64,000 bases of DNA. It comes from Actinomycetota bacterium. GTDB lineage: Bacteria > Actinomycetota > Actinomycetes > S36-B12. The position numbers were made by a program, and so were the translations under genes. The DNA is taken from NCBI GenBank assembly GCA_030650795.1, contig JAUSDJ010000017.1, positions 388,077 to 452,076 of the forward strand, read 5' to 3'. Below the pieces are notes generated by a model. It did no database searches. It worked only from the letters and a program-made list of their open reading frames with translations, and had not been told where the DNA came from. Shown here in pieces: positions 7,753 through 23,857 of the stretch (its first letter is position 1; each line of letters begins with the position of its first letter).

Positions 7753-7947
7753 CTAGCCAGTCGGTGGTGACCAGGCCTTGTTCAGTACTCGGTGCACCTT
7801 GCGATCACCTGGATAGGTCTCATCACCGCCGAGAAGATCAAGCATGCTCAACAACAGGTCAGGCAGCTTTTGCAGATTATTCTCGTGGACTTCGCGCAGG
7901 ATTTCGAAGTCTGAGGATGTCATGTCATCCATGCGGTGAAACTGCAT
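7753..7947 (-). CDS. Hypothetical small protein (64 aa), last gene of the pil-associated operon
   Basis: Internal ATG of ORF 7753..8148, starting 19 nt after the upstream stop. No motif recognised. Confidence 0.3.
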   Translation of the reverse strand: MQFHRMDDMTSSDFEILREVHENNLQKLPDLLLSMLDLLGGDETYPGDRKVHRVLNKAWSPPTG

Positions 7948-7966
7948 GTGACCGGCTTCCGTAGAT

Positions 7967-8359
7967 TCAGTCGTCGAGATCGGACAATTCCAGAAGAAGC
8001 CCGATTTGCACGGCACCGGTTGGCTGCTCAGAAACTTGCGCGGATTCCCCTGCAGGGATCTTCTCGGCCCCTGCGCCACCATTCGGCCCAGTGAGTACCT
8101 GGAGTTCAGGGGCAAAAAGCCTGACGAGGTCGACGCCGTCGAGTGCACCTGTCACATCTTTCCCGGCCAACAGCGCTTGCAACTCTGGAGCAATCTCGGG
8201 AAGAGTCGAATCCCCATCGGCAGCTGCGGCAAACCAATGCGGAATCTGCGAACCTGCCATGCGAAACCGGAGTTCAGGGGCAATCTCGGCAATCTCGGCA
8301 AGTGTCAGCGGCTGCTGCAACCCAAACATTGCGAAAGCCGCATCTGAGTACTCGGACAC
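7967..8359 (-). CDS. Hypothetical acidic protein with three (I/F)APEL(R/Q) repeats (130 aa)
   Basis: GTG start with a GGAGGG RBS. Repeats are IAPELRF, IAPELQA and FAPELQV. The DNA shows the matching repeats (gcaatctcg x2, agttcaggggcaa x2). Confidence 0.5.
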   Translation of the reverse strand: MSEYSDAAFAMFGLQQPLTLAEIAEIAPELRFRMAGSQIPHWFAAAADGDSTLPEIAPELQALLAGKDVTGALDGVDLVRLFAPELQVLTGPNGGAGAEKIPAGESAQVSEQPTGAVQIGLLLELSDLDD

Positions 8360-8384
8360 CTATTCCCTCCAGATTCTTATCGTG

Positions 8385-9926
8385 TTAGCGCTGGAAGCTC
8401 ATACGACGACGCTCAGTCTCAGGATCAAAGCCTTCGGTAGCGAGTTGTAGGTGTTGAACCGAGTCCTCAGGAGCCGCATTGCTTGCCCAATCCGCCAAAG
8501 GTCGATCGGCAAGGCATGCATGGGCAAGTTCATAATATGCCGGACCGACATTGGGATGGTCGAGCAATTCATGCATACGATTGAGGTTCGTAGCTGTCAA
8601 GACATCACGAGTCGCAAGCGGAATAACGCCAACAACTGGCATGCCCAGCCCGGCTGCAAGGACTTGTTCCTGCTCCATACCAACATTTGCCGCAGATTGA
8701 TTGACGACAATTCCCAACTTCTCTCGGGAGATGCCTAATCCGGACTCCTCCAGTGGAGACGTGATTTCGCGCAAAGCGCGAGCCATGCCTTGGATTGCTG
8801 TGGAAGCCAAGTTGGTGACGAACAGGATCTCATCTGCTTCCACCAATGCCACACTTGCAATAAGGGGTTCCAGGTACAGAACGCTGGTGTCAATGACAAT
8901 GACATCGAACATTCGCTGGAGACTTCTGACGATCGCCCGGTAGAAATCAGGTCCGACCGCATCTGCTGTACGAGGACGGATTGGCGCCAAGAGGCAGTAC
9001 ACGTCCAAGGTCTCAGCCTTGACAAGGCTGCTCCGGATGCACTCTTCGTCCCATACCGGTTGCACCCTGATGTTCAATGCTGTCGGCATGAACCGGCCAA
9101 TCAGCGATGCAACCTGACCGTCACGAGTGTCCAGATCCACAATGCACACGGACAAGGGAGCGCCCGCCTGCTTAGACGCGCGGGCGATCGCAGCGGCGAG
9201 CATGATGGAGGCGGTGGATTTGCCTGAGCCGCCTTTACTGGAAGTGACGGTGATCGTGGTCTGACCGGGCGGCTTGGCACGATTGAGCAGTTCCATCGAA
9301 GCGGCAGCAGGAACCTCTGGCGTCAAGGAATCTTCTGATTGTGGCTCTCCGATCCCACCAATGAACGGCAGGGCCGGCATTCGAAGGGCAAGAGTTCCAT
9401 TTCTTACTGCATTGGCATCATCGCCCCGCATTCCCAGGATGACATCGATGTCAGCTGGGAGCGGCTCGGGAAACTTCACTAAGTCTTCGGTGTACTGGGC
9501 AATGCCTTGCAGTACCGCCCTCCCTCCAAAATGAAGGTCAAGGAAATGCACAACTATCTGATTGGGATCAAGCTCCTGCGATATCGCATAGGCCTCAACT
9601 TGCGCCCAAAGTGCATCCCGGGTGCGCTGATGTGCAGATGCCACGAAGACTCGCGCACCAGCATCAGCCATCGTCACAATTGCTTGCGCCGTTTGGGCAA
9701 TCTCACGCGCCTCATGAGCCTGACCGACGGCCAGGGAATCCGAGAACACCAGCACTCGAGCACGCGAACTGATGCGGCCAGCAGCCAGCGCTGCCCACAT
9801 CGCCTCAATTGATTCCTGACGTTCTTCCAATCGCCACGATGCACCAGATGCACCGAGCAGAGAATACAACTGCGGTTCCCCGACGACGATGATCTGCGTG
9901 CCGCTCTCCTGCGGTTCAACGCTCAT
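8385..9926 (-). CDS. ParA/MinD-superfamily ATPase with receiver-like N-terminal domain (TadZ/CpaE/Ssd-like)
   Basis: Deviant Walker A (VTSSKGGSGKSTAS) and MinD-like core (IVDLD..., VIVIDT). The N-terminal ~130 aa has a beta-alpha pattern (IIVVGEP.., VLVFSDSL.., RVFVASA). ATGA overlap with the upstream gene. Confidence 0.75.
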   Translation of the reverse strand: MSVEPQESGTQIIVVGEPQLYSLLGASGASWRLEERQESIEAMWAALAAGRISSRARVLVFSDSLAVGQAHEAREIAQTAQAIVTMADAGARVFVASAHQRTRDALWAQVEAYAISQELDPNQIVVHFLDLHFGGRAVLQGIAQYTEDLVKFPEPLPADIDVILGMRGDDANAVRNGTLALRMPALPFIGGIGEPQSEDSLTPEVPAAASMELLNRAKPPGQTTITVTSSKGGSGKSTASIMLAAAIARASKQAGAPLSVCIVDLDTRDGQVASLIGRFMPTALNIRVQPVWDEECIRSSLVKAETLDVYCLLAPIRPRTADAVGPDFYRAIVRSLQRMFDVIVIDTSVLYLEPLIASVALVEADEILFVTNLASTAIQGMARALREITSPLEESGLGISREKLGIVVNQSAANVGMEQEQVLAAGLGMPVVGVIPLATRDVLTATNLNRMHELLDHPNVGPAYYELAHACLADRPLADWASNAAPEDSVQHLQLATEGFDPETERRRMSFQR

Positions 9927-10300
9927 TTCTGGGACCCCCTCCGTTCCGCAATCAAGTTGGCTGGACTGAGTCCGGCCGGCCCGTACAGGAGAAAAGCACG
10001 CTTGTGTTCTTGCTCAACTCTGAAGACGGAGTCACTCAATTCCTCGGCGGATACCGGTGATTCCTGCTGATCCTCGGCTTCCAATCCCGCAGCCCCGGTG
10101 GGAGATCCAGTCTCACCAGAAAAGATCCGGATTCCTTCAATGAGCGCCTGCGAAACTTGCAGATCCCCATGCTCGTCACGATCGGAGAGGAGGCCAATGT
10201 CTGCGTCGTCGATTGGCGAGTGGGTAAGCCGGTCAGCCATTTCGGTCTGATCGACCTTGCCGAATACGGAGCACGAGCCTTCGATGGGTTGATCACTCAT
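9923..10300 (-). CDS. Hypothetical acidic protein (125 aa)
   Basis: Start at the internal ATG at 10300 (8-nt overlap, ATGAGTGA, with the upstream stop). Its stop overlaps the ParA-like start (ATGA). No motif recognised. Confidence 0.5.
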   Translation of the reverse strand: MSDQPIEGSCSVFGKVDQTEMADRLTHSPIDDADIGLLSDRDEHGDLQVSQALIEGIRIFSGETGSPTGAAGLEAEDQQESPVSAEELSDSVFRVEQEHKRAFLLYGPAGLSPANLIAERRGSQK

Positions 10301-10727
10301 GAGCACTCCTCGGTTGTGACTGATCCGAATGCCAGTCGGACTCTGCGAGTTCACCATCGACAAAGTCGTCTAGTTCGGCCAACCAGGCTTGGGTTTCGTG
10401 CTGCAGATCAAGTGATGTGACGGGCACATCGTCGGGAACTCCAGAATGGCGATGCCAGGCGATCGACCAGGAGACCGCACAGTCGCGAGCTTGGCAAGCC
10501 ACCGCCTTGTGGTGGAGTTCGTCGCCCTCACACACACGGGCTTGCGCGCTCAACCGAATGGATCGCGAATGACCCGGCGGGCGATCAACGTCAAGTTCGA
10601 CGGTGTGAAATGAGCGCTTCTCCGTATCGTCATTGTCAGCGACTGGAACGACCGCAGTGACCCGACCGGTCCCCGAGCGCATGACAAACGTGAGCCCCTC
10701 TGCGTCCTTTTTGATCCAGCCCAGCAT
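10293..10727 (-). CDS. Hypothetical protein (144 aa)
   Basis: AAGGAGG RBS 40 nt downstream of the pilD stop. No motif recognised. Confidence 0.55.
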   Translation of the reverse strand: MLGWIKKDAEGLTFVMRSGTGRVTAVVPVADNDDTEKRSFHTVELDVDRPPGHSRSIRLSAQARVCEGDELHHKAVACQARDCAVSWSIAWHRHSGVPDDVPVTSLDLQHETQAWLAELDDFVDGELAESDWHSDQSQPRSAHE

Positions 10728-10767: not shown

Positions 10768-11571
10768 TCACAAGCCCATCAAGTCTGAATAGGCTCCCCA
10801 AACCGGCTCTGCAATGAGCAAGCCGAGAAGGGAGCCGATGAGAAGAAATGGCCCGAACGCCAAACGCGAGCCCCGCTGAGCACGTCCCGAAATCAGATAG
10901 ACGATTCCAACAACTGCGCCAACGAGGAAGCCGGCGAACAAGCCGACCGCCGCATACTCCATCCCCAACCAGCCAAGAGTCGCGCCAAGGATGGGCGCCA
11001 GTTTGACGTCCCCAAAGCCCATCCCACGTCCGGCAGTAAGCAGCCAGAGTCCCCCAATCACCGAAATCCACAGCAGCGCGCCGCCAAGTGCAGGTAGCCA
11101 GTGCCCTACACCTGTGACAAGCTGGCTCGCGGCCAGACCTACCACGGCAATGGGATACAACGGCAGCACAATCGCGTCGGGCAGGCGCTGGGTACGCGCA
11201 TCGATCACTGCCAAGGCCAGACCGGCACTGGCAAGAGTCAGCAGAAGTGGCAGCAGCGATGCCTGCTCCACCACAAACAATGACCAGTACGCCAGAGCAA
11301 CCCACAGAGTTGCATTAGCGAGTTCGACGAGCGGGTACTGCCACGAAATCACGCCGCCGCATGTACGACATCTACCACGCAAGACCAACCAGGAGAGCAC
11401 CGGAATGTTGTCCCGCCAGCGCAACTGACTTCCACAGTCTGGACATGCTGATGCCGGGTGAATGACCGATCGATGCTCTGGCACCCGCGCGATCACCACG
11501 TTCAAGAATGAACCGATCAACAGCCCCAGGACACCGAGCGCGGCGACGATTGCTGCTGCCACATCACTCAC
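10768..11571 (-). CDS. pilD: Prepilin peptidase / N-methyltransferase (A24 family)
   Basis: FLNVVIARVP, CPDCGSQLRWRDNIPVLSW...CRTCG zinc motif, GMGFGDVKL catalytic Asp motif, polytopic membrane protein. GTG start at 11571 (GTGAGTGA overlap with the upstream stop). The ORF-track extension to 11955 lies inside the upstream gene. Confidence 0.85.
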   Translation of the reverse strand: MSDVAAAIVAALGVLGLLIGSFLNVVIARVPEHRSVIHPASACPDCGSQLRWRDNIPVLSWLVLRGRCRTCGGVISWQYPLVELANATLWVALAYWSLFVVEQASLLPLLLTLASAGLALAVIDARTQRLPDAIVLPLYPIAVVGLAASQLVTGVGHWLPALGGALLWISVIGGLWLLTAGRGMGFGDVKLAPILGATLGWLGMEYAAVGLFAGFLVGAVVGIVYLISGRAQRGSRLAFGPFLLIGSLLGLLIAEPVWGAYSDLMGL

Positions 11572-12652
11572 GTAGTGCGGCTCTTCGAGCGATCGCGGCC
11601 TCAAGACGCTCACGCACCTGACGGGCCTGGCTCTCGGCTGCCACGAGTTCAGCTCGCAAGGTTGCGATTGCGAAGTCCCCCCCTCCATCCAAGACTGGCG
11701 CAACTGCAAGGAGGGGAACAGGCAGCACAGCAACCTCGACGATGGAGGGAGGCAGGTTCTGAGGTTCAGATTCCTCGGCTGACTCCTCTGGCTCCTCAAA
11801 CTCGTCGAGCACCAACTGCTGAGTCTGGAGCAAAGGCGTGATGTCGGCATGGAAGGGCACTTGATCGAACGCCTCCGGCACCAAAATGGATTCGCAAGGG
11901 AGCCCGGTGCCCTCACCAATCTCCACGACTCCGGCGTGCACCAAACCAACCACAAGGTGGGTTGCCTCGGCTCGAGTCAGGCCCAGCGCATTGGCCGCCT
12001 TATCAAGGCTTGATTCCAAGGCCAGAGCGGCAAGCAGCGATGCGAATTCTGGTAACTCAAACCCAGTTGGGAGCAGGACACCCGTTGCATTCCAGGTTAT
12101 TTCAGACACTGATGAAGCGGGTGCGATCTGTTCCCACTCCTGGCTCATGCGACGACGGCGAATTCGGGCGGCTTGTTGAAGTTCGTCGAAGTTGAGGGGC
12201 ATGGTGCACACCTCATTTGTCATGGCTCCGTCCACGAATCGTGACGTCACTTCCGAGCATTCGAGTACCGCTCCAAGCCCAGCGAGCAGGAACTCTTGAT
12301 GGATATTGGCCAAGGAGTCAGCAGTGATCCACCCACGCTCCAGGGCCATTCGTCCCAGACTGGCATGAGTCGAATCGGGGTCGGACTCGTGCTCGAGCTG
12401 CGCCAGTTGGCGCGCATCGATCAGACCTGCAGAGACAAGTCGGCGACCTACCGGGACGTCGTACCCCATGAGTTCTATCGCGTAGACTTGGCCGTCCACG
12501 AAGAAGAGTCGGGCCATTGACCCGGACAGGGAGGCAGTCACCTCAAGGCAACCGGTGCGCGAATCAGCGCAAACGCGATCGACCTCCGGATGGGATGCCA
12601 AGGGCAGGCCAATTTTCGTGGGTGGCTTGTGCCGGCCAAGGTGTACGCGCAT
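11564..12652 (-). CDS. DUF4388-like protein with central HTH-like segment and acidic/coiled-coil C-terminus
   Basis: The N-terminus (GCLEVTASLSGSMARLFFVDGQVYAIE...GRRLVSAGLIDARQL) fits the DUF4388 pattern. LGLTRAEATHLVVGLVHAGVVEI looks winged-helix-like. GAGGAGGA RBS. Its stop overlaps the pilD start. Confidence 0.5.
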   Translation of the reverse strand: MRVHLGRHKPPTKIGLPLASHPEVDRVCADSRTGCLEVTASLSGSMARLFFVDGQVYAIELMGYDVPVGRRLVSAGLIDARQLAQLEHESDPDSTHASLGRMALERGWITADSLANIHQEFLLAGLGAVLECSEVTSRFVDGAMTNEVCTMPLNFDELQQAARIRRRRMSQEWEQIAPASSVSEITWNATGVLLPTGFELPEFASLLAALALESSLDKAANALGLTRAEATHLVVGLVHAGVVEIGEGTGLPCESILVPEAFDQVPFHADITPLLQTQQLVLDEFEEPEESAEESEPQNLPPSIVEVAVLPVPLLAVAPVLDGGGDFAIATLRAELVAAESQARQVRERLEAAIARRAALRE

Positions 12653-15142: not shown

Positions 15143-15598
15143 CTAGACGACGTCCGCTGCTGGAGCCGTGCCCGCCGGGCAGCCAGCCGCGACTACAGCG
15201 GCTGTCGGAGTGATCAAGCCACCGCCCGCTGAGTCGTAGTAGGTCAGGCTGTCCGCGAGCGCCTCGGAGTTGCAGGCCACGATGGTGAAGGAGTTTCCGG
15301 TGGCCGCAACAGCAACCGACAGCACATTGCCAACGGAGATCTTCGCGTCGTTCGTGGTGATGAGGTTGGTTCCACCGGCAGGGTAGGCGCTGTTCTGCGT
15401 GTACGCCGTCTCCATCAGTGTGGCCACATTGCGCACGTCAGATTCAACTGAAGCCGTACGCGCCGAGTTGCGCTGATTCAAGAAAACGGGGATCGCAATT
15501 GCGGCGAGAATTCCAATGATGATGACGACGACGAGAAGCTCGATCAGGGTGAAACCCGATTCGCGTTCGTCCCGCATCCTTGTTAAGCGAGTGAGCAT
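15143..15598 (-). CDS. pilA: Type IV major pilin
   Basis: Class III signal (..RESG|FTLIELLVVVIIIGILAAIAIP). C-terminal Cys pair (C..C) forms the D-region. AGGAG RBS 8 nt before the ATG at 15598. Confidence 0.85.
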   Translation of the reverse strand: MLTRLTRMRDERESGFTLIELLVVVIIIGILAAIAIPVFLNQRNSARTASVESDVRNVATLMETAYTQNSAYPAGGTNLITTNDAKISVGNVLSVAVAATGNSFTIVACNSEALADSLTYYDSAGGGLITPTAAVVAAGCPAGTAPAADVV

Positions 15599-15649
15599 GT
15601 GATGACTCCTGATCAAACTACCCCTCGTCGGGGTTCAGCCCCCGATGGG

Positions 15650-15679
15650 CTGATACAAAGGGTTTCGGACCGATTGCAG
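15650..15679 (-). promoter_or_regulatory. Candidate pilA promoter: TGCAAT-N17-TATCAG with GTCCGAAAC in the spacer
   Basis: The minus strand reads cTGCAATcgGTCCGAAACcctttgTATCAG, about 50-80 nt upstream of the pilA ATG. The same architecture occurs at 29048-29077. Confidence 0.35.
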
Positions 15680-15690
15680 GAGTTGGCCCC

Positions 15691-16911
15691 TCACTTCTTG
15701 ACGAGGTCGAAGATATTGAAAATAGGCAGGTACATCGCCACGATCATCCCTCCGACAAGTGCACCGAGCATCATGATCATGATGGGTTCAATGAGCGCCA
15801 TCAGTTGCTCCGTTGTCGACTCAACCTCCTCGTCGTAGAAGTCGGCGATCTTTCCCAACATGTGATCTAGGGCTCCGGTGTCTTCGCCCACTGCCATCAT
15901 CTGCACCACCATGTCAGGAAAAACGCCATGCTCGGCAAGTGGTTTTGCGATGCTCGACCCCTGACGCACACTCTCCTTCACGTCATCGACCGCGCGACGG
16001 ATAACAATGTTTCCGGCTGTGTCACCAACGATGTCAAGCGCAACGAGGATCGGGACTCCTGCGCGCAGCAGTGCAGCGAAGTTACGGCTGAAGCGGGCCA
16101 GCGCGATCTTTTGGAAGAGGTGACCGAACACCGGCAAGCGAAACTTCATCGGGTCAACAATTGCGCGCAGCCACGGTTCGCGACTCACATGGTGGTACCA
16201 CCAGACCAGCAGAATGCTTCCGAGGATGATCGGGAAAAGGAAGTACGGATTCTTCACCAGATTTGACAGGTTCACCAGAAATTGGGTGGGAGCGGGAAGC
16301 TGTCCGCCGAGGTTGTTGAACATTTCGGAGAAGACCGGAACCACGAAGATGAGCATCGCTGTGGTGACGATCACTGCAATGACCCCTACTGCGACTGGAT
16401 AGGTCAACGCGGCCTTGATTCGACCACGCAGACGCACATCGGCCTCGATCGACTCAGCGATCTGCAGCATGGTCTCGTCCAGGAAGCCACCGACTTCGCC
16501 TGCTCTAATCATGTTGACCATGATCGGTGGGAATTCCTCATATTCCGCAAGGGATTCCGACAGTGCCGCGCCTCGTTCGACATCGTCACGGACACGAAGG
16601 AGGACTTCGCGAAGCCGTTGGCTCTCAGACTGCTCGGCCAGGATCGCCAGACACCGCAGTATCGGCAGGCCCGCACCGAGCATCGTGGCGAACTGGCGAG
16701 TCATGACAGCGAGGTCCTTGCCCTTGACCTTGGGCTTGCGAAGGTTGATATCACGATTCCAGCCGCCTGCCTTGGCCTCGACCGCTATCGGTGTCAGCCC
16801 GAGTTGACGTATGCGTGCAATGGCATCGGTCTCGCTCGATCCCCTGATCAGTTGCTCGACCAGCCGACCGTTGCGGGCGCGCGCTCTGACGAGGTACTCA
16901 ATCTGAGGCAT
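15691..16911 (-). CDS. pilC: Type IV pilus platform protein (GspF/PilC family)
   Basis: Two T2SS-F domains and polytopic membrane topology, with typical length. Start at ATG 16911 (MPQIEYL...); the alternative is 16944. Confidence 0.9.
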   Translation of the reverse strand: MPQIEYLVRARARNGRLVEQLIRGSSETDAIARIRQLGLTPIAVEAKAGGWNRDINLRKPKVKGKDLAVMTRQFATMLGAGLPILRCLAILAEQSESQRLREVLLRVRDDVERGAALSESLAEYEEFPPIMVNMIRAGEVGGFLDETMLQIAESIEADVRLRGRIKAALTYPVAVGVIAVIVTTAMLIFVVPVFSEMFNNLGGQLPAPTQFLVNLSNLVKNPYFLFPIILGSILLVWWYHHVSREPWLRAIVDPMKFRLPVFGHLFQKIALARFSRNFAALLRAGVPILVALDIVGDTAGNIVIRRAVDDVKESVRQGSSIAKPLAEHGVFPDMVVQMMAVGEDTGALDHMLGKIADFYDEEVESTTEQLMALIEPIMIMMLGALVGGMIVAMYLPIFNIFDLVKK

Positions 16912-18193
16912 TGGTGTCTCTTCCCAGTAGCTGGTCAAGTTCAAGGGCGTCTGAGCATTTCTCGCGCGCTACGTCGTACTCCACTGACCCGGCATTAACC
17001 AATTCAGCGAGGCTCTGATTCAGTGTGTGCATTCCATGTCGCGACCCTGTTTGCAGAGCCGAGGGGATCGACTGCAGCTTGCCCTCGCGGATCAGATTGC
17101 GGATCGCCGGCGTGGCAATCATGACCTCGGTCGCCGCGACGCGCCCTGCTGCATCAACCGTTCGACACAGGGTCTGGCAGACCACCGCTTCGATCGAATT
17201 GGCCAACTGCGTGCGGATCTGCGCCTGCTGCTCCGCCGGGAACACGTCGATTATTCGATCGATGGTGCTGGCAGCAGAGCTCGTATGCAGCGTGGCAAAG
17301 ACAAGGTGGCCTGTCTCCGCGGCCGTCAACGCAATCGAGATCGTCTCCAGATCACGCATCTCACCAACCAGGATCACATCCGGATCCTGACGAAGCGCGT
17401 GCTTGAGCGCATTGGCAAAAGACCAGGTGTCGGTGCCCACTTCGCGCTGATTGACGACGCAGGATCGGTGCTTGTGGACGAATTCGACGGGATCCTCGAT
17501 CGTGATGATGTGCCCCTTGCGCGTGCGATTCACCCGATCAACCATTGCTGCCAAAGTGGTGGACTTCCCCGAACCGGTCGGGCCGGTCACAAGCACCAGG
17601 CCGCGCGCAAGCTTGCACAGCTCGCCTAGTTCTGCCGGCATGTCCAAGGCCTCCAAGGACTTGATCTCCCAGGGAATGGCACGGAGGACTGCCCCCATGA
17701 AGCCTTGCTGCTGCAACAGGTTCACGCGAAAGCGTGCGGCACCGGGCAGCGCATAGGCTAAGTCGAGTTCCTTGTTCTCCTCAAAGACCTGCTTCTGACG
17801 GTCGGTCAGCACCGCGTAGAGCGCCGCCTTGATCTCCTGGCCAGAGAACGGCTGATATCCCACTACCGGTTGCAGATCGCCGTTCACACGAATCAGCGGA
17901 GGTGAGCCCACGCTGAGGTGCAGATCGGAGCCACCACTTTCCAATAGTTGAACGAGCAGCTCATCAAGGACGAAGCCGCCCATCAACCCCGATCGCTCTT
18001 CGCGGGGACGCGCCACGATCCCGATATCACCGGGCGCCGGCGGCAGGGCAGGTGCGACAACCGTCGATCTTGCTGCGGCTTTGGGTGCAGACGCATGGCC
18101 GCCAGGTGACATGAGACCGATCGGCGGCACAGTGGGCAAGACCAGCTCGACTGGCTTGGCCGAGACCGGCAAGTTGAAATCCTCGTCATTCAT
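16898..18193 (-). CDS. pilT: Twitching-motility retraction ATPase PilT with Pro/Ala-rich N-terminal extension
   Basis: Walker A GPTGSGKSTT and the PilT signature AIRNLIREGK. ATG at 18193 (the ORF track uses TTG at 18208). An internal ATG at 17983 would give a canonical-length PilT. Confidence 0.9.
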   Translation of the reverse strand: MNDEDFNLPVSAKPVELVLPTVPPIGLMSPGGHASAPKAAARSTVVAPALPPAPGDIGIVARPREERSGLMGGFVLDELLVQLLESGGSDLHLSVGSPPLIRVNGDLQPVVGYQPFSGQEIKAALYAVLTDRQKQVFEENKELDLAYALPGAARFRVNLLQQQGFMGAVLRAIPWEIKSLEALDMPAELGELCKLARGLVLVTGPTGSGKSTTLAAMVDRVNRTRKGHIITIEDPVEFVHKHRSCVVNQREVGTDTWSFANALKHALRQDPDVILVGEMRDLETISIALTAAETGHLVFATLHTSSAASTIDRIIDVFPAEQQAQIRTQLANSIEAVVCQTLCRTVDAAGRVAATEVMIATPAIRNLIREGKLQSIPSALQTGSRHGMHTLNQSLAELVNAGSVEYDVAREKCSDALELDQLLGRDTNASD

Positions 18194-18220
18194 CGGCGGC
18201 CCTTTCAAGAGTGACCACGA

Positions 18221-19900
18221 CTAGGCGATCACGCGCAGGACTTCGCTGATCGTGGTCAGCCCCTGTGAGACCTTCAGCCAGCCGTCTTGTCGAAGGGTGC
18301 GCATGCCGGCATCGATCGCCACCCGACTTACTTCATCGGAAGTGGCCCGGCCGAATGCGAGTCGGCCGATGTCCTCAGACATTGGCATCACTTCATGCAG
18401 GCCCATGCGCCCTCGGTAGCCGGTGTTCGCGCAGCTCGAGCAGCCTTTCGGCTCGTAGAAGGTGGGATCCAGATCCGGCTGATACTCAAAGTGCACCACC
18501 GCCAATTCAGCAACGCTCTTGTTCACGCGACGCTTGCAGTCAGGGCACAGTCGCCGGGCCAGGCGTTGACTTGTGGCGCAAGCGAGTGCCGAGCTCACCA
18601 GGAATGGCTCGATCCCCATTTCGATGAGCCGCGTGATCACACTCGGTGCATTGTTGGTATGCAGCGTGGTCAGAACCAAATGACCGGTGAGCGCTGATTC
18701 CACCGCGATCTGGGCGGTCTCATAGTCGCGAATCTCACCGATCAGGATGACATCAGGATCGGCACGCAGAATCGAGCGCAGAGCTGAGGCGAAGGTGAGC
18801 CCTGCCTTGGCATTCGTCTGAATCTGGTTGATGCCCGGGATGCGGTACTCGACGGGATCCTCGACCGTCACGATGTTGATCTCAGGCTTTGTGACAGTGT
18901 TCAGAGTCGCGTACAAGGTCGTGGACTTTCCTGATCCGGTCGGGCCACTGACAATCAGCATGCCATTGGGTCGCTCGAAGGAGTCCCGCCAATGACTCAG
19001 GTTCGGCGCAGAGAAGCCGAGATCCGATAACGTCATCTGGGCAGAGGAATTGTCCAGAATGCGCATCACGATCTTCTCGCCCCACACAGTCGGCAAGCAG
19101 TTGACCCGCAGATCGACCTTCTTGCCTTGCCAGATCAATGACAGTCGTCCATCTTGCGGTACTCGGCGTTCGGCGATGTTCATTTCAGCCATGATCTTCA
19201 GTCGCGAGATCAAGGCCGACTGCATCTCCTTGGGTGCCGGCGCCTGCTCTTTGAGCACGCCATCGATCCTGAATCGGATTCGGATGTAGTCCTCGCTGGG
19301 CTCAACGTGGATATCGGAGGCCTTGTCGGAGATCGCCTGATTCAGCAGCAGATTGACATAGCGCACCAGCGGAGCATCAGACGTCGACACCACTGGTGCC
19401 TGGATGTCGATGAGCTTCTCGTCGACGAGCATGTCACGCACGAGTTCGCCGAGTTCATACTCTGCGCGGTACAACTGATTGATGCGAATAGCGATCTCAG
19501 CCTTCATTGCACAGGCGAATCGCACAGAATGATGGGTGATCGTCTCCAGATCCTCACCGATCTGCCAATTGGCCGCCGTCTGCGAATCGGCGACTACGAC
19601 AAGGGTCTGTGCCTCGAATGCGACGGGGATCACCTGGTACCTGCGTGCCTGATCACCCGTGAGCAGGTGCACCGCCGACTCATCCACCTTCAGGCTCATG
19701 ATGTCGATAAACTCCAGTCCAGCGGCTTGCACTGTCGCGCGCACGATGTCCTTCTTTGTGATACTTCCCTGCTGCACCAAGATATTGAGCACAGGCTCGC
19801 CCCGCGAAGTCGCGACCGCTTCCGCGGCCGCCTTCTGCTCTCTCGTGATGAGGCCACTCATCACCAGGATTTCGGCGACAGAGCCTGAAGAACTATTCAC
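18221..19900 (-). CDS. pilB: Type IV pilus assembly ATPase (GspE/PilB family)
   Basis: N-terminal GspE_N/MshEN-like domain, Walker A GPTGSGKSTTLY, tetracysteine CPDC...CSSC motif. GTG start overlaps the upstream stop (GTGAATAG). Confidence 0.9.
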   Translation of the reverse strand: MNSSSGSVAEILVMSGLITREQKAAAEAVATSRGEPVLNILVQQGSITKKDIVRATVQAAGLEFIDIMSLKVDESAVHLLTGDQARRYQVIPVAFEAQTLVVVADSQTAANWQIGEDLETITHHSVRFACAMKAEIAIRINQLYRAEYELGELVRDMLVDEKLIDIQAPVVSTSDAPLVRYVNLLLNQAISDKASDIHVEPSEDYIRIRFRIDGVLKEQAPAPKEMQSALISRLKIMAEMNIAERRVPQDGRLSLIWQGKKVDLRVNCLPTVWGEKIVMRILDNSSAQMTLSDLGFSAPNLSHWRDSFERPNGMLIVSGPTGSGKSTTLYATLNTVTKPEINIVTVEDPVEYRIPGINQIQTNAKAGLTFASALRSILRADPDVILIGEIRDYETAQIAVESALTGHLVLTTLHTNNAPSVITRLIEMGIEPFLVSSALACATSQRLARRLCPDCKRRVNKSVAELAVVHFEYQPDLDPTFYEPKGCSSCANTGYRGRMGLHEVMPMSEDIGRLAFGRATSDEVSRVAIDAGMRTLRQDGWLKVSQGLTTISEVLRVIA

Positions 19901-21056
19901 GGAATCCCGCCCGTCTCAGCGCCACAAGGAGATCCGTCACATTCGATGCCACCGTCTCGGCCTCGCGAAGAGACACGTCGCCTGCGAGTACGAGTCGGAC
20001 GGCATCCTGCTCGAAAGAACGCATGCCGTAGTACTCACCATCGGTGATGATCTCGCCCAGCAGCGCTGTCTTCGTGGAGTCGGCCACAGCCTCCTTTACC
20101 CGTGGAGTCGCCACGGCAACCTCGCATATGAGCACGCGCCCATCTCCACGCGCAGACGCCACCAGTTGCTGGCAGAGGATCCCTTGCAGGGACTCGGCAA
20201 CCGAGGCTCGCGCCTGGCGCTGCTCGTCTGCCGGAAACATGTCGACGATGCGATGAACGGCATCGACGACCGACTTTGCGTGGAGGCTGGCGAGCACCAG
20301 ATGTCCTGTCTCGGCTGCCTGCAAGGCCGTACGCATGGTCTCGACGTCCCTGATCTCACCGATCAGGATGACGTCGGGATCTTGGCGAAGACCGGATCTC
20401 AGTGCCTGCGCAAAGTCGAAAGTGTCGGTATGAAGTTCGCGCTGGCTGATCGTGGCCAACTTGTTCCGATGAATGAACTCAATCGGATCCTCGATGGTGA
20501 GGATGTGACAGCGACGCTCCTCATTGATGAGGTCCACGAGAGCGGCCAGAGTGGTGGACTTGCCCGAGCCCGTCGGTCCGCAGACCAACACCAACCCCGC
20601 AGTGGCGCGCGCGAGGGTGCCTGTCACATTCGGGAGTCCCAGCTCCACCAGACTGGGAACCTGCTCCCGGACAAGTCTCAGGACCATCGCATCTGCCCCG
20701 CGAGCACGGTAGGCATTCACGCGAAATCGGGCTGCCGAGTTCGAGACAAGGGCGAAATCGCACTCGTGGTCGCGAATGAACGCCGCCTGATCGGCTCCAC
20801 TCGTCATCGCCTGCCCGACGAGTGCTGAAGCATCCTGCTCGGTGAGATCGGGCAGATCGAGAGGGAACAACTGACCTGAGACACGCAGGAGCGGTGGGGC
20901 TCCGGCTCGGACATGCACATCGGAAGCGCCAAGCGCCACTGCCGCCGTGAGTATCTGCTCGAGTTCAACAGGCGTAGTCGCCAAGTCACCCTCGACTGCG
21001 CTCGCCCCGGCCTCAAGTGGAGCGGCACCGTCGAATTGCGAAACCAGTAGAGCCAT
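19893..21056 (-). CDS. Second PilT-family ATPase (PilT2/PilU-like); start uncertain
   Basis: Walker A GPTGSGKSTT and a PilT-like core. The AIRNLIRE signature is replaced by ATPRVKEAV. A TTG at 20984 would give a canonical N-terminus (see findings). Confidence 0.8.
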   Translation of the reverse strand: MALLVSQFDGAAPLEAGASAVEGDLATTPVELEQILTAAVALGASDVHVRAGAPPLLRVSGQLFPLDLPDLTEQDASALVGQAMTSGADQAAFIRDHECDFALVSNSAARFRVNAYRARGADAMVLRLVREQVPSLVELGLPNVTGTLARATAGLVLVCGPTGSGKSTTLAALVDLINEERRCHILTIEDPIEFIHRNKLATISQRELHTDTFDFAQALRSGLRQDPDVILIGEIRDVETMRTALQAAETGHLVLASLHAKSVVDAVHRIVDMFPADEQRQARASVAESLQGILCQQLVASARGDGRVLICEVAVATPRVKEAVADSTKTALLGEIITDGEYYGMRSFEQDAVRLVLAGDVSLREAETVASNVTDLLVALRRAGFRE

Positions 21057-21192: not shown

Positions 21193-22335
21193 ATGGCCAA
21201 GGGCGAGTTCTGCCTCATAGGGCTCGATATCGGCACGACCGGCATCCGCGCCGTGGAACTTCGCCGATCGCGCTCGACTGCTGATCTCGAAATCGTCCGA
21301 ATGGCCTGCGCGGAATTGCCACCGGGAGTCATGTCCGACGGTGCGGTCATCGACCAGCCCGCGTTGGCCAAGGCCATCCGTGCACTCTGGCGGCAGGGAC
21401 GCTTCCGGACTCGGCGCCTGGCCTTCGCTGTTACTGATCCCAACGTGCTCACGCGTCAGCTGGATCTGGCATGGATGCCCCCAGACGATTTCAAAGCCGC
21501 ACTTCGATACCAGGTGCAAGGCTCACTGCCATTCGACTTCGATTCCGTCGCGCTCGACTACCACCTGCTCGCCGAGATCGAGCGGACGGACACCAAAGGT
21601 CAGGCGACCACCGACAACAGAGTTCTTGTGGTGGCAACGAATCGTGAGCACACGGCCGCGATCGCGTCCGCAATCCGCAAGGCGGGCCTTGAGCCCGTCG
21701 TTGCCGACCACGCGCCCTTTGCTCTCATTCGTTCGGTCTGCCAAGGGCATTTGCCCAACGACGCAAGCGTGCACGCGGTAGTCGATATCGGAGCCGACCA
21801 GATGACCGTGGTCATTCACTCGGAAGGCCAGCCTCGGTTCATCCGCACCCTCAGCCAACTTGGGAGCAATCTTGCCACCCGATCGATCGCGAGTGCGCTC
21901 GATATCGACAGTGACGAGGCCGAGGCGCTCAAGCGCTCAACAGGGTTGAACGGGGCAGCCCCAACCGTGGTCTCCATCGCAGAATCGAGCGTGTTCAGCA
22001 CGATCGTGGATTCGCAAGCCGCCGAGATCGACCAGCGCTCTTTGGTAGCCCTCAGCGAACTCAATACCTGGGCCGCCACCATCGTCGGTGAGATCGCCAA
22101 TTCCATCGACTACTACGCATCGGGCATAGGTGTTGCTCCCGTCGAATCAGTTCTCCTTGTAGGGCGTGCGGCGAATCTCGATGGATTGCGCGAGCGCATT
22201 GCGACTCAATTGCCCTATCCAGTGCAAAGTGCCGACGCAACCATGGGCCTCAGCGTCAATCCGAAGCTTCGAGAGTATGCACAGGATGCTCAGGCCGCGC
22301 TGGCCATAGGTCTGGCCATGGCGGTTAAGACATGA
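21193..22335 (+). CDS. pilM: Type IV pilus assembly protein PilM (actin-like ATPase fold)
   Basis: GLDIGTTGIRAVEL N-terminus. AGGAGGA RBS 5 nt before the ATG at 21193. The ORF-track extension to 20947 overlaps pilT2 on the opposite strand. Confidence 0.85.
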   Translation: MAKGEFCLIGLDIGTTGIRAVELRRSRSTADLEIVRMACAELPPGVMSDGAVIDQPALAKAIRALWRQGRFRTRRLAFAVTDPNVLTRQLDLAWMPPDDFKAALRYQVQGSLPFDFDSVALDYHLLAEIERTDTKGQATTDNRVLVVATNREHTAAIASAIRKAGLEPVVADHAPFALIRSVCQGHLPNDASVHAVVDIGADQMTVVIHSEGQPRFIRTLSQLGSNLATRSIASALDIDSDEAEALKRSTGLNGAAPTVVSIAESSVFSTIVDSQAAEIDQRSLVALSELNTWAATIVGEIANSIDYYASGIGVAPVESVLLVGRAANLDGLRERIATQLPYPVQSADATMGLSVNPKLREYAQDAQAALAIGLAMAVKT

Positions 22336-23174
22336 GTAGGCCGAGGACAGACTGGCGGCAGATTAGCTTCGGCGATGTCCTCAGCCGGATTCGTCGACGG
22401 GAGCCCAAAGACAGCGATGCGCGAACGAAGTTCACTCCCACTCTTCCTATGGTGAATCTGCTTCCAGTCGAAATTCGCGAATCCATCTTCCTGAGCAAGG
22501 TCTTCCGCGCGGGCATGCTCGCTGCAATCGTGCTGATGGCGATCGCAACGCTGATCTGGTTGGTTCAGGCGCCGGCGATCAATTCCTCCAGCGCGGCACT
22601 TGCAGACGCACAGGCGGCAAACGCACATGAACAAGCCCAGGTCCAGGCACTGTCGCCCATTGCGCAGATGCTCAACCAGATCACTAGCCAGAAGAAACTG
22701 GTCGTCACCACTCTCGCTTCTCAACCCAAAGCCGCTGCGATCAGCCGTCGCCTCCTGGCAGCCGCAGCAAGCACCGGCTCGCCTGCCATCACATTCGACA
22801 CGATCTCCGTGACCTATTCCGGTATCCCAAACGGGAGGCCAGTAGCAAACCCCTGCCCTAACCCGGATCCATTCTCATCCCCAGTTGCAATCGGATGCAT
22901 AGTGTTCAGCGCCTCCGCCGGCACCCGCGAGCAGGTCTCCCGACTGCTGACCGCCTTGGGTCGCGATTCCTTGTTCATCGGCCCCTATGTCGGCAACTCA
23001 ACTCTGGCCGCCCCAGGAGTCGGCAGCCGTCAATCCGTGGCGTTCTCAGGCACGGTCGGTATCTCCCTCGGTGGGCTATCAACGCCTCTCAGCTCCGCAC
23101 AACGCAAGGCTCTGCAGGCCGCGGCGACAGCGACCCCCGGCACAGGCCTCGCGGCAACGAAGGCGGGCGCATAG
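22332..23174 (+). CDS. pilN: PilN-like fimbrial assembly protein (280 aa, longer than usual)
   Basis: ATGA overlap with pilM. VNLLPVEIRE motif followed by one TM helix. Confidence 0.6.
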   Translation: MSRPRTDWRQISFGDVLSRIRRREPKDSDARTKFTPTLPMVNLLPVEIRESIFLSKVFRAGMLAAIVLMAIATLIWLVQAPAINSSSAALADAQAANAHEQAQVQALSPIAQMLNQITSQKKLVVTTLASQPKAAAISRRLLAAAASTGSPAITFDTISVTYSGIPNGRPVANPCPNPDPFSSPVAIGCIVFSASAGTREQVSRLLTALGRDSLFIGPYVGNSTLAAPGVGSRQSVAFSGTVGISLGGLSTPLSSAQRKALQAAATATPGTGLAATKAGA

Positions 23175-23176
23175 CG

Positions 23177-23857
23177 ATGCGTATTGGGAGGGTGAAACTT
23201 GCCGTGACTGGAGTGATCGTCGCGCTGATCCTCTTCGCCGCCGCGCTGTGGTCGCTCGTGCTTTCGCCCCGAATCTCGACAGCTGCCCAACTCAAGGAGC
23301 AGTCGGCTCAGGTCGAGCAGGCGAACATCACGCTCGCCCGACGTCATGGCGAGATTCTGGATCTGGCAGCGAAGGCACCCCAGCTGGCTCATGAGGCGCA
23401 GCAACTCTTCTCCAGGATGCCTGAGTCTGCGAAGTTGCCGGCCGTTCTGCGGCAAATCGCTGCTGCAGCAATCGCATCGGGCATCTCGACTCAGAACGTC
23501 CTGTTGATCAACACCTCAATTCCCGAAAGCCTGGACAAGGTCGACAACTCAAGTAACCAGATATCCGCAAACGCGGCCAGCAGTCTGGGAGTCAACCTGG
23601 CCACGATGACGATTGAGATCACGGTGAACGGGAGCCAGGCGCAGCGATTGAGGTTCCTGGACAAGGTCCAGCACCTCGATCGGGGTCTGCTCATCAACGC
23701 TCACAGCACGATCACTGACGGAACTCATGCAACATCTGGAACCCTGACCGTGACCGGCACAATGTTCGTTCTGCAGTCCAAGCTCCCTGATCTGGTGGCC
23801 AAGGCGCAGACGATCATCGACAAAGCGCAACAGGAAGCTGTCGGCCAGAAGCGCTGA
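23177..23857 (+). CDS. pilO: PilO-like pilus assembly protein
   Basis: ATG 2 nt after the pilN stop. N-terminal TM helix, then a coiled coil, then an alpha/beta C-domain (LPAVLRQIAAAAIASGISTQNV). Confidence 0.55.
   Translation: MRIGRVKLAVTGVIVALILFAAALWSLVLSPRISTAAQLKEQSAQVEQANITLARRHGEILDLAAKAPQLAHEAQQLFSRMPESAKLPAVLRQIAAAAIASGISTQNVLLINTSIPESLDKVDNSSNQISANAASSLGVNLATMTIEITVNGSQAQRLRFLDKVQHLDRGLLINAHSTITDGTHATSGTLTVTGTMFVLQSKLPDLVAKAQTIIDKAQQEAVGQKR

Follow-up and report, generated by a model that had tools for sequence, protein, structure and literature searches.

In a 64,000-nucleotide stretch of DNA from an Actinomycetota bacterium (assembly GCA_030650795.1, contig JAUSDJ010000017.1; hereafter the window), a type IVa pilus operon contains the gene of a 513-residue ATPase (8385..9926, minus strand; isoelectric point [pI] 4.9) of the MinD/ParA type. 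Judging from its sequence relationships, this ATPase belongs to the TadZ/CpaE lineage, although the curated TadZ models miss it. TadZ itself is localised at the cell pole, and the positioning of TadA and of the pilus machine depends on it; it serves as a hub for recruitment and has been described as unique to Tad systems. We consider it rather probable that the TadZ-lineage ATPase of the window left the Tad system and became a fixed part of the type IVa operon as a hub-like assembly or positioning module. Together with the small proteins encoded beside it, here termed A, B and D, it probably represents a so far unrecognised module of this kind for the type IVa pilus.

Lineage and host operon of the ATPase

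To place the ATPase, 1.84 billion cluster representatives were searched with its profile, which returned 186 sequences at E<=1e-30. The close homologs of the ATPase number in the hundreds and all come from uncultured Actinomycetota. The DNA context was looked up for ten of the more distant relatives, and nine of the ten proved to be Tad-associated, eight by contexts with RcpC or TadA/TadB/TadC-type genes and one as a TadA-like fusion. The relative lies in the order RcpC-[protein]-T2SSE-T2SSF-T2SSF in P0171, P0154, and P0156, RcpC-[protein]-T2SSE in P0166 and P0144, and RcpC-[protein] in P0148; it follows T2SSF-T2SSE-T2SSF...RcpC in P0194/P0215, stands between two T2SSF genes and a T2SSE gene in P0176, and is fused to a TadA-like ATPase in P0151. 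Such neighbours are what a Tad locus would be expected to have around its TadZ/CpaE gene, and on this basis, together with the sequence comparisons below, we placed the ATPase in the TadZ lineage.

Sequence comparison within the family pointed in the same direction. A hidden Markov model of the N-terminal domain (N-domain) of the window protein matched the Tad-linked relatives at E values of 3e-22 to 5e-5, and both domains are homologous. The motifs PTALNIRV, LLAPxRPR, and GMARALRE are common to the window family and the Tad-linked relatives and are absent from MinD, and the Walker A motif SSKGGSGKST is identical in the Tad-linked relatives. In the ATPase domain, the window protein shares 63% identity with the Tad-linked P0144 versus 23% with Escherichia coli MinD. 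In a neighbour-joining tree rooted on MinD, the pil-linked proteins formed a monophyletic, shallow clade nested among the Tad-linked proteins in 175 of 200 bootstraps, and the sister group of this clade included P0144, P0151, or P0148 in 167 of 200. The curated TadZ models (TadZ_N and TIGR03815) also fail on the Tad-linked relatives. The initial annotation had compared the protein with TadZ/CpaE or mycobacterial Ssd on account of its layout; the lineage is borne out by the Tad-locus relatives and the homologous domains, whereas the curated TadZ and Ssd models miss the protein.

The host locus is of type IVa, not Tad, as the initial annotation had recognised. In the Pfam analysis, PilB carries MshEN and T2SSE domains, PilC is one protein with two T2SSF domains, and the operon has one PilB and two PilT proteins (pilT2, pilB, pilT1, pilC, and pilA, 15143..21056, minus strand; T2SSE with or without MshEN, T2SSF twice, and N_methyl). 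The pilin is a 157-residue protein of the N-methyl type, not the Flp type. The genes pilM, pilN, and pilO are divergent (21250..23857, plus strand; PilM_2 at 2e-37 and a weak PilO match, with pilN named only by its position between pilM and pilO), and minor pilins lie beyond them. The prepilin peptidase gene pilD (10768..11571, start approximate, minus strand) was identified by A24_N_bact at 2.7e-35 and by Peptidase_A24. Beside it is the gene of a 362-residue DUF4388/PATAN protein (11564..12652, minus strand; DUF4388 at 1.6e-8), which gave a sub-threshold NCBIfam match to an MshE-related family binding cyclic di-guanosine monophosphate (4.9e-5, 23 bits versus a cut-off of 38). According to a preprint on cyanobacteria, PATAN-domain proteins bind the PilB/PilC motor there (bioRxiv 10.1101/2021.06.11.447907). 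Within the 64-kilobase (kb) window, there is no T2SSE ATPase besides PilB, PilT1, and PilT2 and no second platform gene, and no tadA, tadB, tadC, rcpC, or flp gene was found near the ATPase gene.

Several relatives show features of their own. The single open reading frame (ORF) of P0151 (L053:6849-10109) encodes 1086 residues, in which a close homolog of the ATPase domain at 59% identity is combined with a secretion ATPase of the TadA family and with another domain resembling CpaE/Ssd. This fusion may be genuine, as in the TadZA protein of Bdellovibrio, or it may have arisen as a frameshift artefact. Nine further proteins (P0153, P0155, P0162, P0163, P0165, P0167, P0182, P0273, and P0279) are 800-1020 residues long, and in them the ATPase match resumes just past Walker A; in P0163, an intein with a LAGLIDADG endonuclease lies at that point. 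Distant family members in L057, L058, and L060 are encoded among Tad genes (T2SSF and T2SSE) together with conjugation-type TcpE and AAA_10 genes, contexts which suggest that more than one type of machine with a secretion ATPase is served by the family at large.

Domain structure and motifs of the ATPase

In Pfam, the 513-residue ATPase matched generic P-loop families only (AAA_31, CbiA, and MipZ), and the best NCBIfam match, minD_bact, reached 55.9 bits versus a cut-off of 212.9. The AlphaFold2 (AF2) model, based on a 24-sequence alignment, has a mean predicted local distance difference test (pLDDT) score of 76 and consists of the N-domain (residues 10-150; 9477..9899, minus strand), a disordered linker (residues 167-207), and a MinD-type ATPase domain (residues 215-478; 8493..9284, minus strand). 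The top Foldseek matches of the C-terminal domain were the ParA-family structure 3EA0, MinD, FlhG, and FleN. In a phmmer search of the PDB, the nearest solved proteins were MinD of Pseudomonas aeruginosa (5e-7) and of E. coli (1e-6). The ParA/MinD ATPase with a KGGSGKST motif that the initial annotation had proposed is confirmed.

The deviant Walker A motif KGGSGKST (residues 231-238; 9213..9236, minus strand), preceded by two serines in the window protein, is invariant in the aligned close homologs, and both of its lysines were present in 109 of the 111 motif matches among representative hits. The segment KGGSGKS satisfies the TadZ consensus K/RGGxGxS/T. Since the variable position of this consensus holds the canonical P-loop lysine, the motif is of the ordinary deviant MinD/ParA type and not atypical. 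In the alignment to E. coli MinD, K231 and K236 correspond to the Walker A lysines K11 and K16, D264/D266 to the DFD segment, and D346 to the CDSP segment. The ATPase domain is about 75% identical across the family, with about 160 invariant columns across 24 diverse homologs; on the evidence of these alignments, the ATPase is under very strong purifying selection. The protein ends, after a variable linker, in a basic/aromatic tail with low pLDDT at its extreme C-terminus (8388..8411, minus strand), which reads RRRMSFQR in the window protein and RRRGLFRR in the family consensus. This tail is common to some Tad-linked relatives and may serve in docking to the membrane or to a partner.

The fully canonical Walker A motif lends weight to a serious alternative, in which the ATPase would cycle as MinD or FlhG does. 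On this account, the ATPase and D would be a MinD/MinE-like or FlhG-like regulator of pilus number or of PilB/PilT switching and not a location marker. Both lysines and the MinD-aligned acidic residues are kept, the closest solved sequences are those of MinD, and the best fold matches include FlhG and FleN; in addition, a strictly linked gene for a small partner lies immediately downstream, in an operon with one PilB and two PilT proteins. However, the lineage is that of TadZ, whose documented role is localisation and recruitment, no FlhF-like or MinC-like gene is present, and the sequence does not discriminate between counting and positioning. We regard such a cycling regulator as unlikely, although it is the strongest competitor of the hub-like module favoured here.

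The N-domain had been called receiver-like in the initial annotation, a description that holds for its topology and for one residue. The domain has the (βα)5 order β-α-β-α-β-α-β-α-β-α, with pLDDT values of 89-95, >90 in the full-length model and 89 when modelled alone. Asp63, at the place expected of a phospho-acceptor, lies directly after β3 (residues 58-62) and is invariant in the pil-linked clade, whereas some Tad-linked relatives have A, T, N, or R in its place. The other receiver residues did not follow: in place of an acidic pair, β1 is followed by just one Glu, the position behind β4 at which a receiver has Thr/Ser is variable, and no Lys follows β5 (consensus LPxxxGG). A true CheY-like receiver was rejected, as Pfam, hhalign, and Foldseek gave nothing significant. 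The N-domain had no Pfam Response_reg match at E<=10 and no other Pfam match, and hhalign against CheY gave a probability of 1.4%. Foldseek against the PDB returned an SGNH esterase as the best match (E 4e-3, template modelling score ~0.45), with no receiver in the top 50. The domain is accordingly described as pseudo-receiver-like and nothing stronger, from its (βα)5 topology and the invariant Asp63 only. A search with the N-domain alone for other architectures returned fragments only.

Conservation of the operon and its small proteins

Downstream of pilD, five co-directional ORFs lie on the minus strand at the coordinates given in the initial annotation, whose ribosome-binding site and gene overlaps were also found as described. 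Gene A (10293..10727) encodes 144 residues and starts with an ATG that has AAGGAGG 7 nucleotides upstream. Gene B (9923..10300; 125 residues, pI 4.35) has AGGAG before its ATG, which overlaps the stop of A by 8 nucleotides (ATGAGTGA). The ATPase start in turn overlaps the stop of B by 4 nucleotides (ATGA), and A and B, as well as B and the ATPase, are translationally coupled via these overlaps. Gene D (7967..8359), which encodes a disordered, acidic protein of 130 residues (pI 4.05), has a GTG start after GGAGGG, 25 nucleotides beyond the ATPase stop in the window. It is followed by ORF E (7753..7947; 64 residues). Because every operon protein is acidic, with B and D the most acidic, this property is not distinctive for the small proteins.

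To examine the conservation of this arrangement, relatives were scanned at one genome per species, which gave 52 loci, all in metagenome-assembled genomes (MAGs) of Nanopelagicales and related Actinomycetota. The usual gene order is pilB-pilT-pilC-pilA-Z-Y-X-PATAN-pilD-A-B-ATPase-D, which is kept in about 40 species-level MAGs, and in about 40 related loci the ATPase likewise lies outside any tad/cpa locus. When the counts were restricted to loci with enough flanking DNA, D was present in 46 of 50, A in 38 of 44, PilD in 34 of 41, PATAN in 37 of 39, and PilB or PilT in 27 of 31. In 47 of the 52 loci, the 2.6 kb upstream of the ATPase contained an ORF with the C-terminal motif of B, and both B motifs were recovered in 39. 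The gene set that had been singled out beside pilD is thus conserved across genomes. Four loci (L044-L046 and L052), which are included in the PATAN count, have the reduced form PilB-(PilT)-PATAN-B-ATPase-D. Since these reduced loci keep it, the stable core is PATAN-B-ATPase-D beside a PilB.

The small proteins A, B, and D are conserved as proteins in 38-46 of the 52 loci, so they are more than chance ORFs; by this measure, they are real clade-specific families without known homologs. None of the three has a Pfam or NCBIfam match or a BLAST-detectable homolog in the Tad-linked loci, and A and D have no sequence match in the PDB. The A family (38 sequences) is characterised by the motifs GTGxVTAV and WHRHxWIPxDLPIxSLxL. 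The B family (40 sequences) is acidic and mostly disordered, with an N-terminal SVFGxVDQ...DDLxSxFF, a variable acidic middle, and a C-terminal R-x-AFILxGPxG. The D family (46 sequences) has an invariant P-x-WF-x-AA, an invariant APEL, a second YAPEL, a variable stretch rich in Pro and acidic residues, and a C-terminal GLLxELxxLD. The initial annotation had noted three (I/F)APEL(R/Q) repeats in D; all three are present in the window protein (IAPELR, IAPELQ, and FAPELQ at residues 26, 56, and 82), but only two are conserved in the family, the first one of the window protein not being among them. The ideas that A or D might be remnants of RcpC, or D a remnant of the TadA N-terminus, were discarded at hhalign probabilities <=0.14%.

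Four orphan genes had been proposed in total, of which A, B, and D passed the coding tests and the 64-residue ORF E did not stand. Residues 1-52 and 51-64 of E match the two ends of a 182-residue protein in locus L002 (L002:3468-4016), which is intact there and itself matches Pfam HD below the threshold (E 1e-3, 19.7 bits versus a cut-off of 22). In the window copy, about 354 nucleotides are missing in frame, and the gap is flanked by GGnGCAC microhomology. E was therefore rejected as a fifth pilus gene and is regarded as the remnant of an HD-domain gene after an in-frame deletion. The large ORFs downstream of D in other loci have no informative domains.

The closest tie in the locus is that between the ATPase and D. 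A search of metagenomes with a DNA pattern based on D found 36 D genes, and the ATPase gene lay directly upstream of D in 30 of the 30 D-seeded metagenome loci that had enough sequence. In two further cases (L033:10112-11409 and L034:544-1838), the gene of a 298-residue ATPase that lacks the N-domain overlaps that of a downstream D homolog by 4 nucleotides, and the two are translationally coupled; in L033 the 10 kb upstream of this pair have no homologs of the window pil genes. Because D follows the ATPase in all 30 loci and also accompanies the form without the N-domain outside pil loci, it is likely the partner of the ATPase.

In 14 genome and 3 metagenome loci, for example L038:8924-9778 on the minus strand (TIGR02479, 229 bits, above the cut-off), B and the ATPase are separated by a gene of the FliA/WhiG sigma-factor family that runs in the opposite direction. 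The other loci with this gene are L005, L006, L007, L008, L011, L015, L035, L036, L037, L040, L041, L042, L051, L078, L082, and L086. The sigma-factor gene is absent from the 64-kb window, and it may regulate the pilus genes. An extra ORF of about 300 residues between B and the ATPase in some loci was dismissed as an antisense shadow of this gene. In addition, the ATPase appears split or fused with D in L044, L052, L038, and L051 (Microflora Danica and other long-read MAGs), including an ORF of 700 residues in L038; these forms are probably indel errors in the low-complexity linker and not real variants. The carriers, Nanopelagicales and their relatives, recur in freshwater and soil metagenomes.

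The existence of the N-domain-less ATPase and D pair outside pil loci and the sigma-factor gene beside the ATPase in 14 loci would also fit a general cell-organisation protein, Ssd-like in septum-site placement or active in division or segregation, that is merely co-transcribed with the pilus genes. The name 'septum site-determining protein', which NCBIfam TIGR03815 gives to the actinobacterial TadZ-like Ssd, agrees with such a role, but the score of the window protein in this model is far under the cut-off. Moreover, about 40 species-level genomes and the reduced loci have preserved the gene order with pilD, PATAN, and PilB, the ATPase is translationally coupled to clade-specific genes, and all relatives with context looked up pair with type IV filament ATPases. 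We judge a general cell-organisation role to be improbable.

Proposed function and comparison with known systems

Several observations weigh against the favoured reading, in which a TadZ-lineage ATPase forms a hub-like module of the type IVa pilus. At the level of solved structures and curated models, TadZ (3FKQ) is absent from the top 50 Foldseek matches, TadZ is absent from the phmmer matches in the PDB at E<=10, no Pfam TadZ_N match was obtained at E<=0.1, and the NCBIfam model of actinobacterial CpaE/Ssd, TIGR03815, gave E 6.6e-4 and 18.9 bits versus a cut-off of 154. The tree is a neighbour-joining tree of one domain, with context known for about 25 of its tips. A canonical GK[ST] lysine typically marks MinD/ParA proteins that are active, and not the low-activity proteobacterial TadZ; given this lysine, the protein may cycle rather than be a static hub. 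The C-terminal tail is short, with just two residues that are hydrophobic, and its form in the window protein is degenerate; it is a tentative candidate for a counterpart of the amphipathic membrane-targeting helix of MinD. Any functional tie of the ATPase with PilB, PilM, the PATAN protein, or the three small proteins is putative, and the search for Tad genes covered only the 64-kb window of a 452-kb contig.

The extent of this search bears on one more explanation, that the ATPase serves in trans a Tad pilus which is encoded elsewhere in the genome and lacks its own TadZ. A protein of the TadZ lineage on a contig seen over 64 of its 452 kb would be compatible with it. On the other side, no homologs of A, B, or D could be detected in Tad-linked loci, D is strictly tied to the ATPase, the clade is a monophyletic group whose members are without exception pil-linked or PilB/PATAN-linked, and the Tad-linked relatives retain a TadZ-like gene beside tadA. 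Because of the synteny and the D linkage, both service in trans and the general cell-organisation role are less likely than the hub-like module, and service in trans appears the most doubtful of the explanations considered.

In the hub-like module that we favour, the ATPase would act as TadZ does in Tad systems, and we infer a positioning function for it. It may bind ATP and form an ATP-dependent sandwich dimer, as proposed because the residues aligned to the MinD Walker A lysines and acidic motifs are retained. The pseudo-receiver N-domain would find the site or the partner, and the basic C-terminal tail would dock the ATPase on the membrane or a partner. The ATPase could then recruit or license the PilB/PilT/PilC/PilM motor complex, possibly via the adjacent PATAN protein. 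D would be the dedicated partner, which either regulates ATP turnover or links the ATPase to its cargo, and its placement immediately downstream of the ATPase gene recalls the position of MinE relative to MinD or of ParB relative to ParA. A and B may be further clade-specific accessory factors.

A possible origin of the arrangement is suggested by the locus L067 (GCA_965111645.1, CBCOOQ010000002.1; 1563-16192), in which pilO-pilN-pilM are divergent from pilB-pilT-pilC-pilA, with the complete Tad cluster rcpC-tadZ-like-tadA-tadB-tadC-tadE coming directly after them. With pil and tad clusters side by side as in L067, subsequent loss of the Tad core would lead to the window arrangement. An L067-type locus may thus represent an evolutionary intermediate, which is put forward as a hypothesis and not as a reconstruction. 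More tentatively, and with clearly less confidence than we place in the hub-like module, the ATPase and D may be a new ParA/MinD-type patterning pair captured via fusion of adjacent pil and tad loci, with D as a new partner class and A and B as further clade-specific factors, which would decide where, when, or how many type IVa pili are made in ultra-small planktonic Actinomycetota.

Comparison with MinD/MinE revealed a shared deviant Walker A with the signature lysine, the best match among solved sequences (E ~1e-6), a short basic/hydrophobic C-terminal tail after a linker, and a small partner gene directly downstream. Unlike MinD, the window protein has an extra N-domain of 150 residues and only 23% identity in the ATPase domain, there are no minC or minE neighbours, and D has no similarity to MinE. 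With FlhG/FleN, the window protein shares a MinD-like fold (4RZ2 and 5J1J among the top Foldseek matches) and the tie to a surface-appendage machine, and control by short peptide motifs of partners is plausible; it differs in having no FlhF or flagellar gene nearby, in the presence of the N-domain and in its TadZ lineage. Ssd (Rv3660c-type; 'CpaE_hom_Actino' in TIGR03815) is likewise an actinobacterial TadZ-like ATPase with an N-terminal extension and a distant relative, whereas its genomic context is different and no genes of the 'helicase/secretion neighbourhood' occur in the window locus. The TadZA fusion of Bdellovibrio (bioRxiv 10.64898/2026.07.08.737194), in which a TadZ module is physically coupled to a filament ATPase and polarity factors, has an analogue in the TadZ-like/TadA-like ATPase fusion of the relative P0151. 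The window protein, in contrast, is unfused, and its presumed partner ATPase is PilB, not TadA.

The closest comparison is that with TadZ/CpaE. Like these proteins, the window protein consists of an N-terminal non-canonical receiver-like α/β domain and a MinD/ParA-type ATPase whose Walker A fits K/RGGxGxS/T; both domains are homologous to those of Tad-locus proteins, and it pairs with a type IV filament assembly ATPase. Unlike them, it is encoded in a type IVa operon with PilB, PilT, PilC, and PilMNO, retains the canonical GK[ST] lysine, and is missed by TadZ_N and TIGR03815; a long disordered linker joins its two domains, and it ends in a basic tail. In addition, its gene is followed by that of the dedicated small protein D and not by tadA. 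In the literature, tadZ was at first a 'forbidden' gene in the model for detecting type IVa pili, and work on type IV pili of Actinobacteria has so far dealt exclusively with Tad pili; our searches brought up no earlier description of a TadZ-like protein encoded in a type IVa locus. A TadZ-lineage ATPase that is stable in a type IVa operon breaks the working rule that TadZ is confined to Tad systems. Because it sits in an operon with PilMNO, the two modes of arranging the machine on its cytoplasmic side do not exclude each other. A known ATPase lineage is thus found in a new machine together with three new partner families, among which D is the clear candidate partner, in carriers whose surface appendages are essentially unstudied, and a locus of the L067 type offers a concrete route by which such modules may be exchanged between filament classes.

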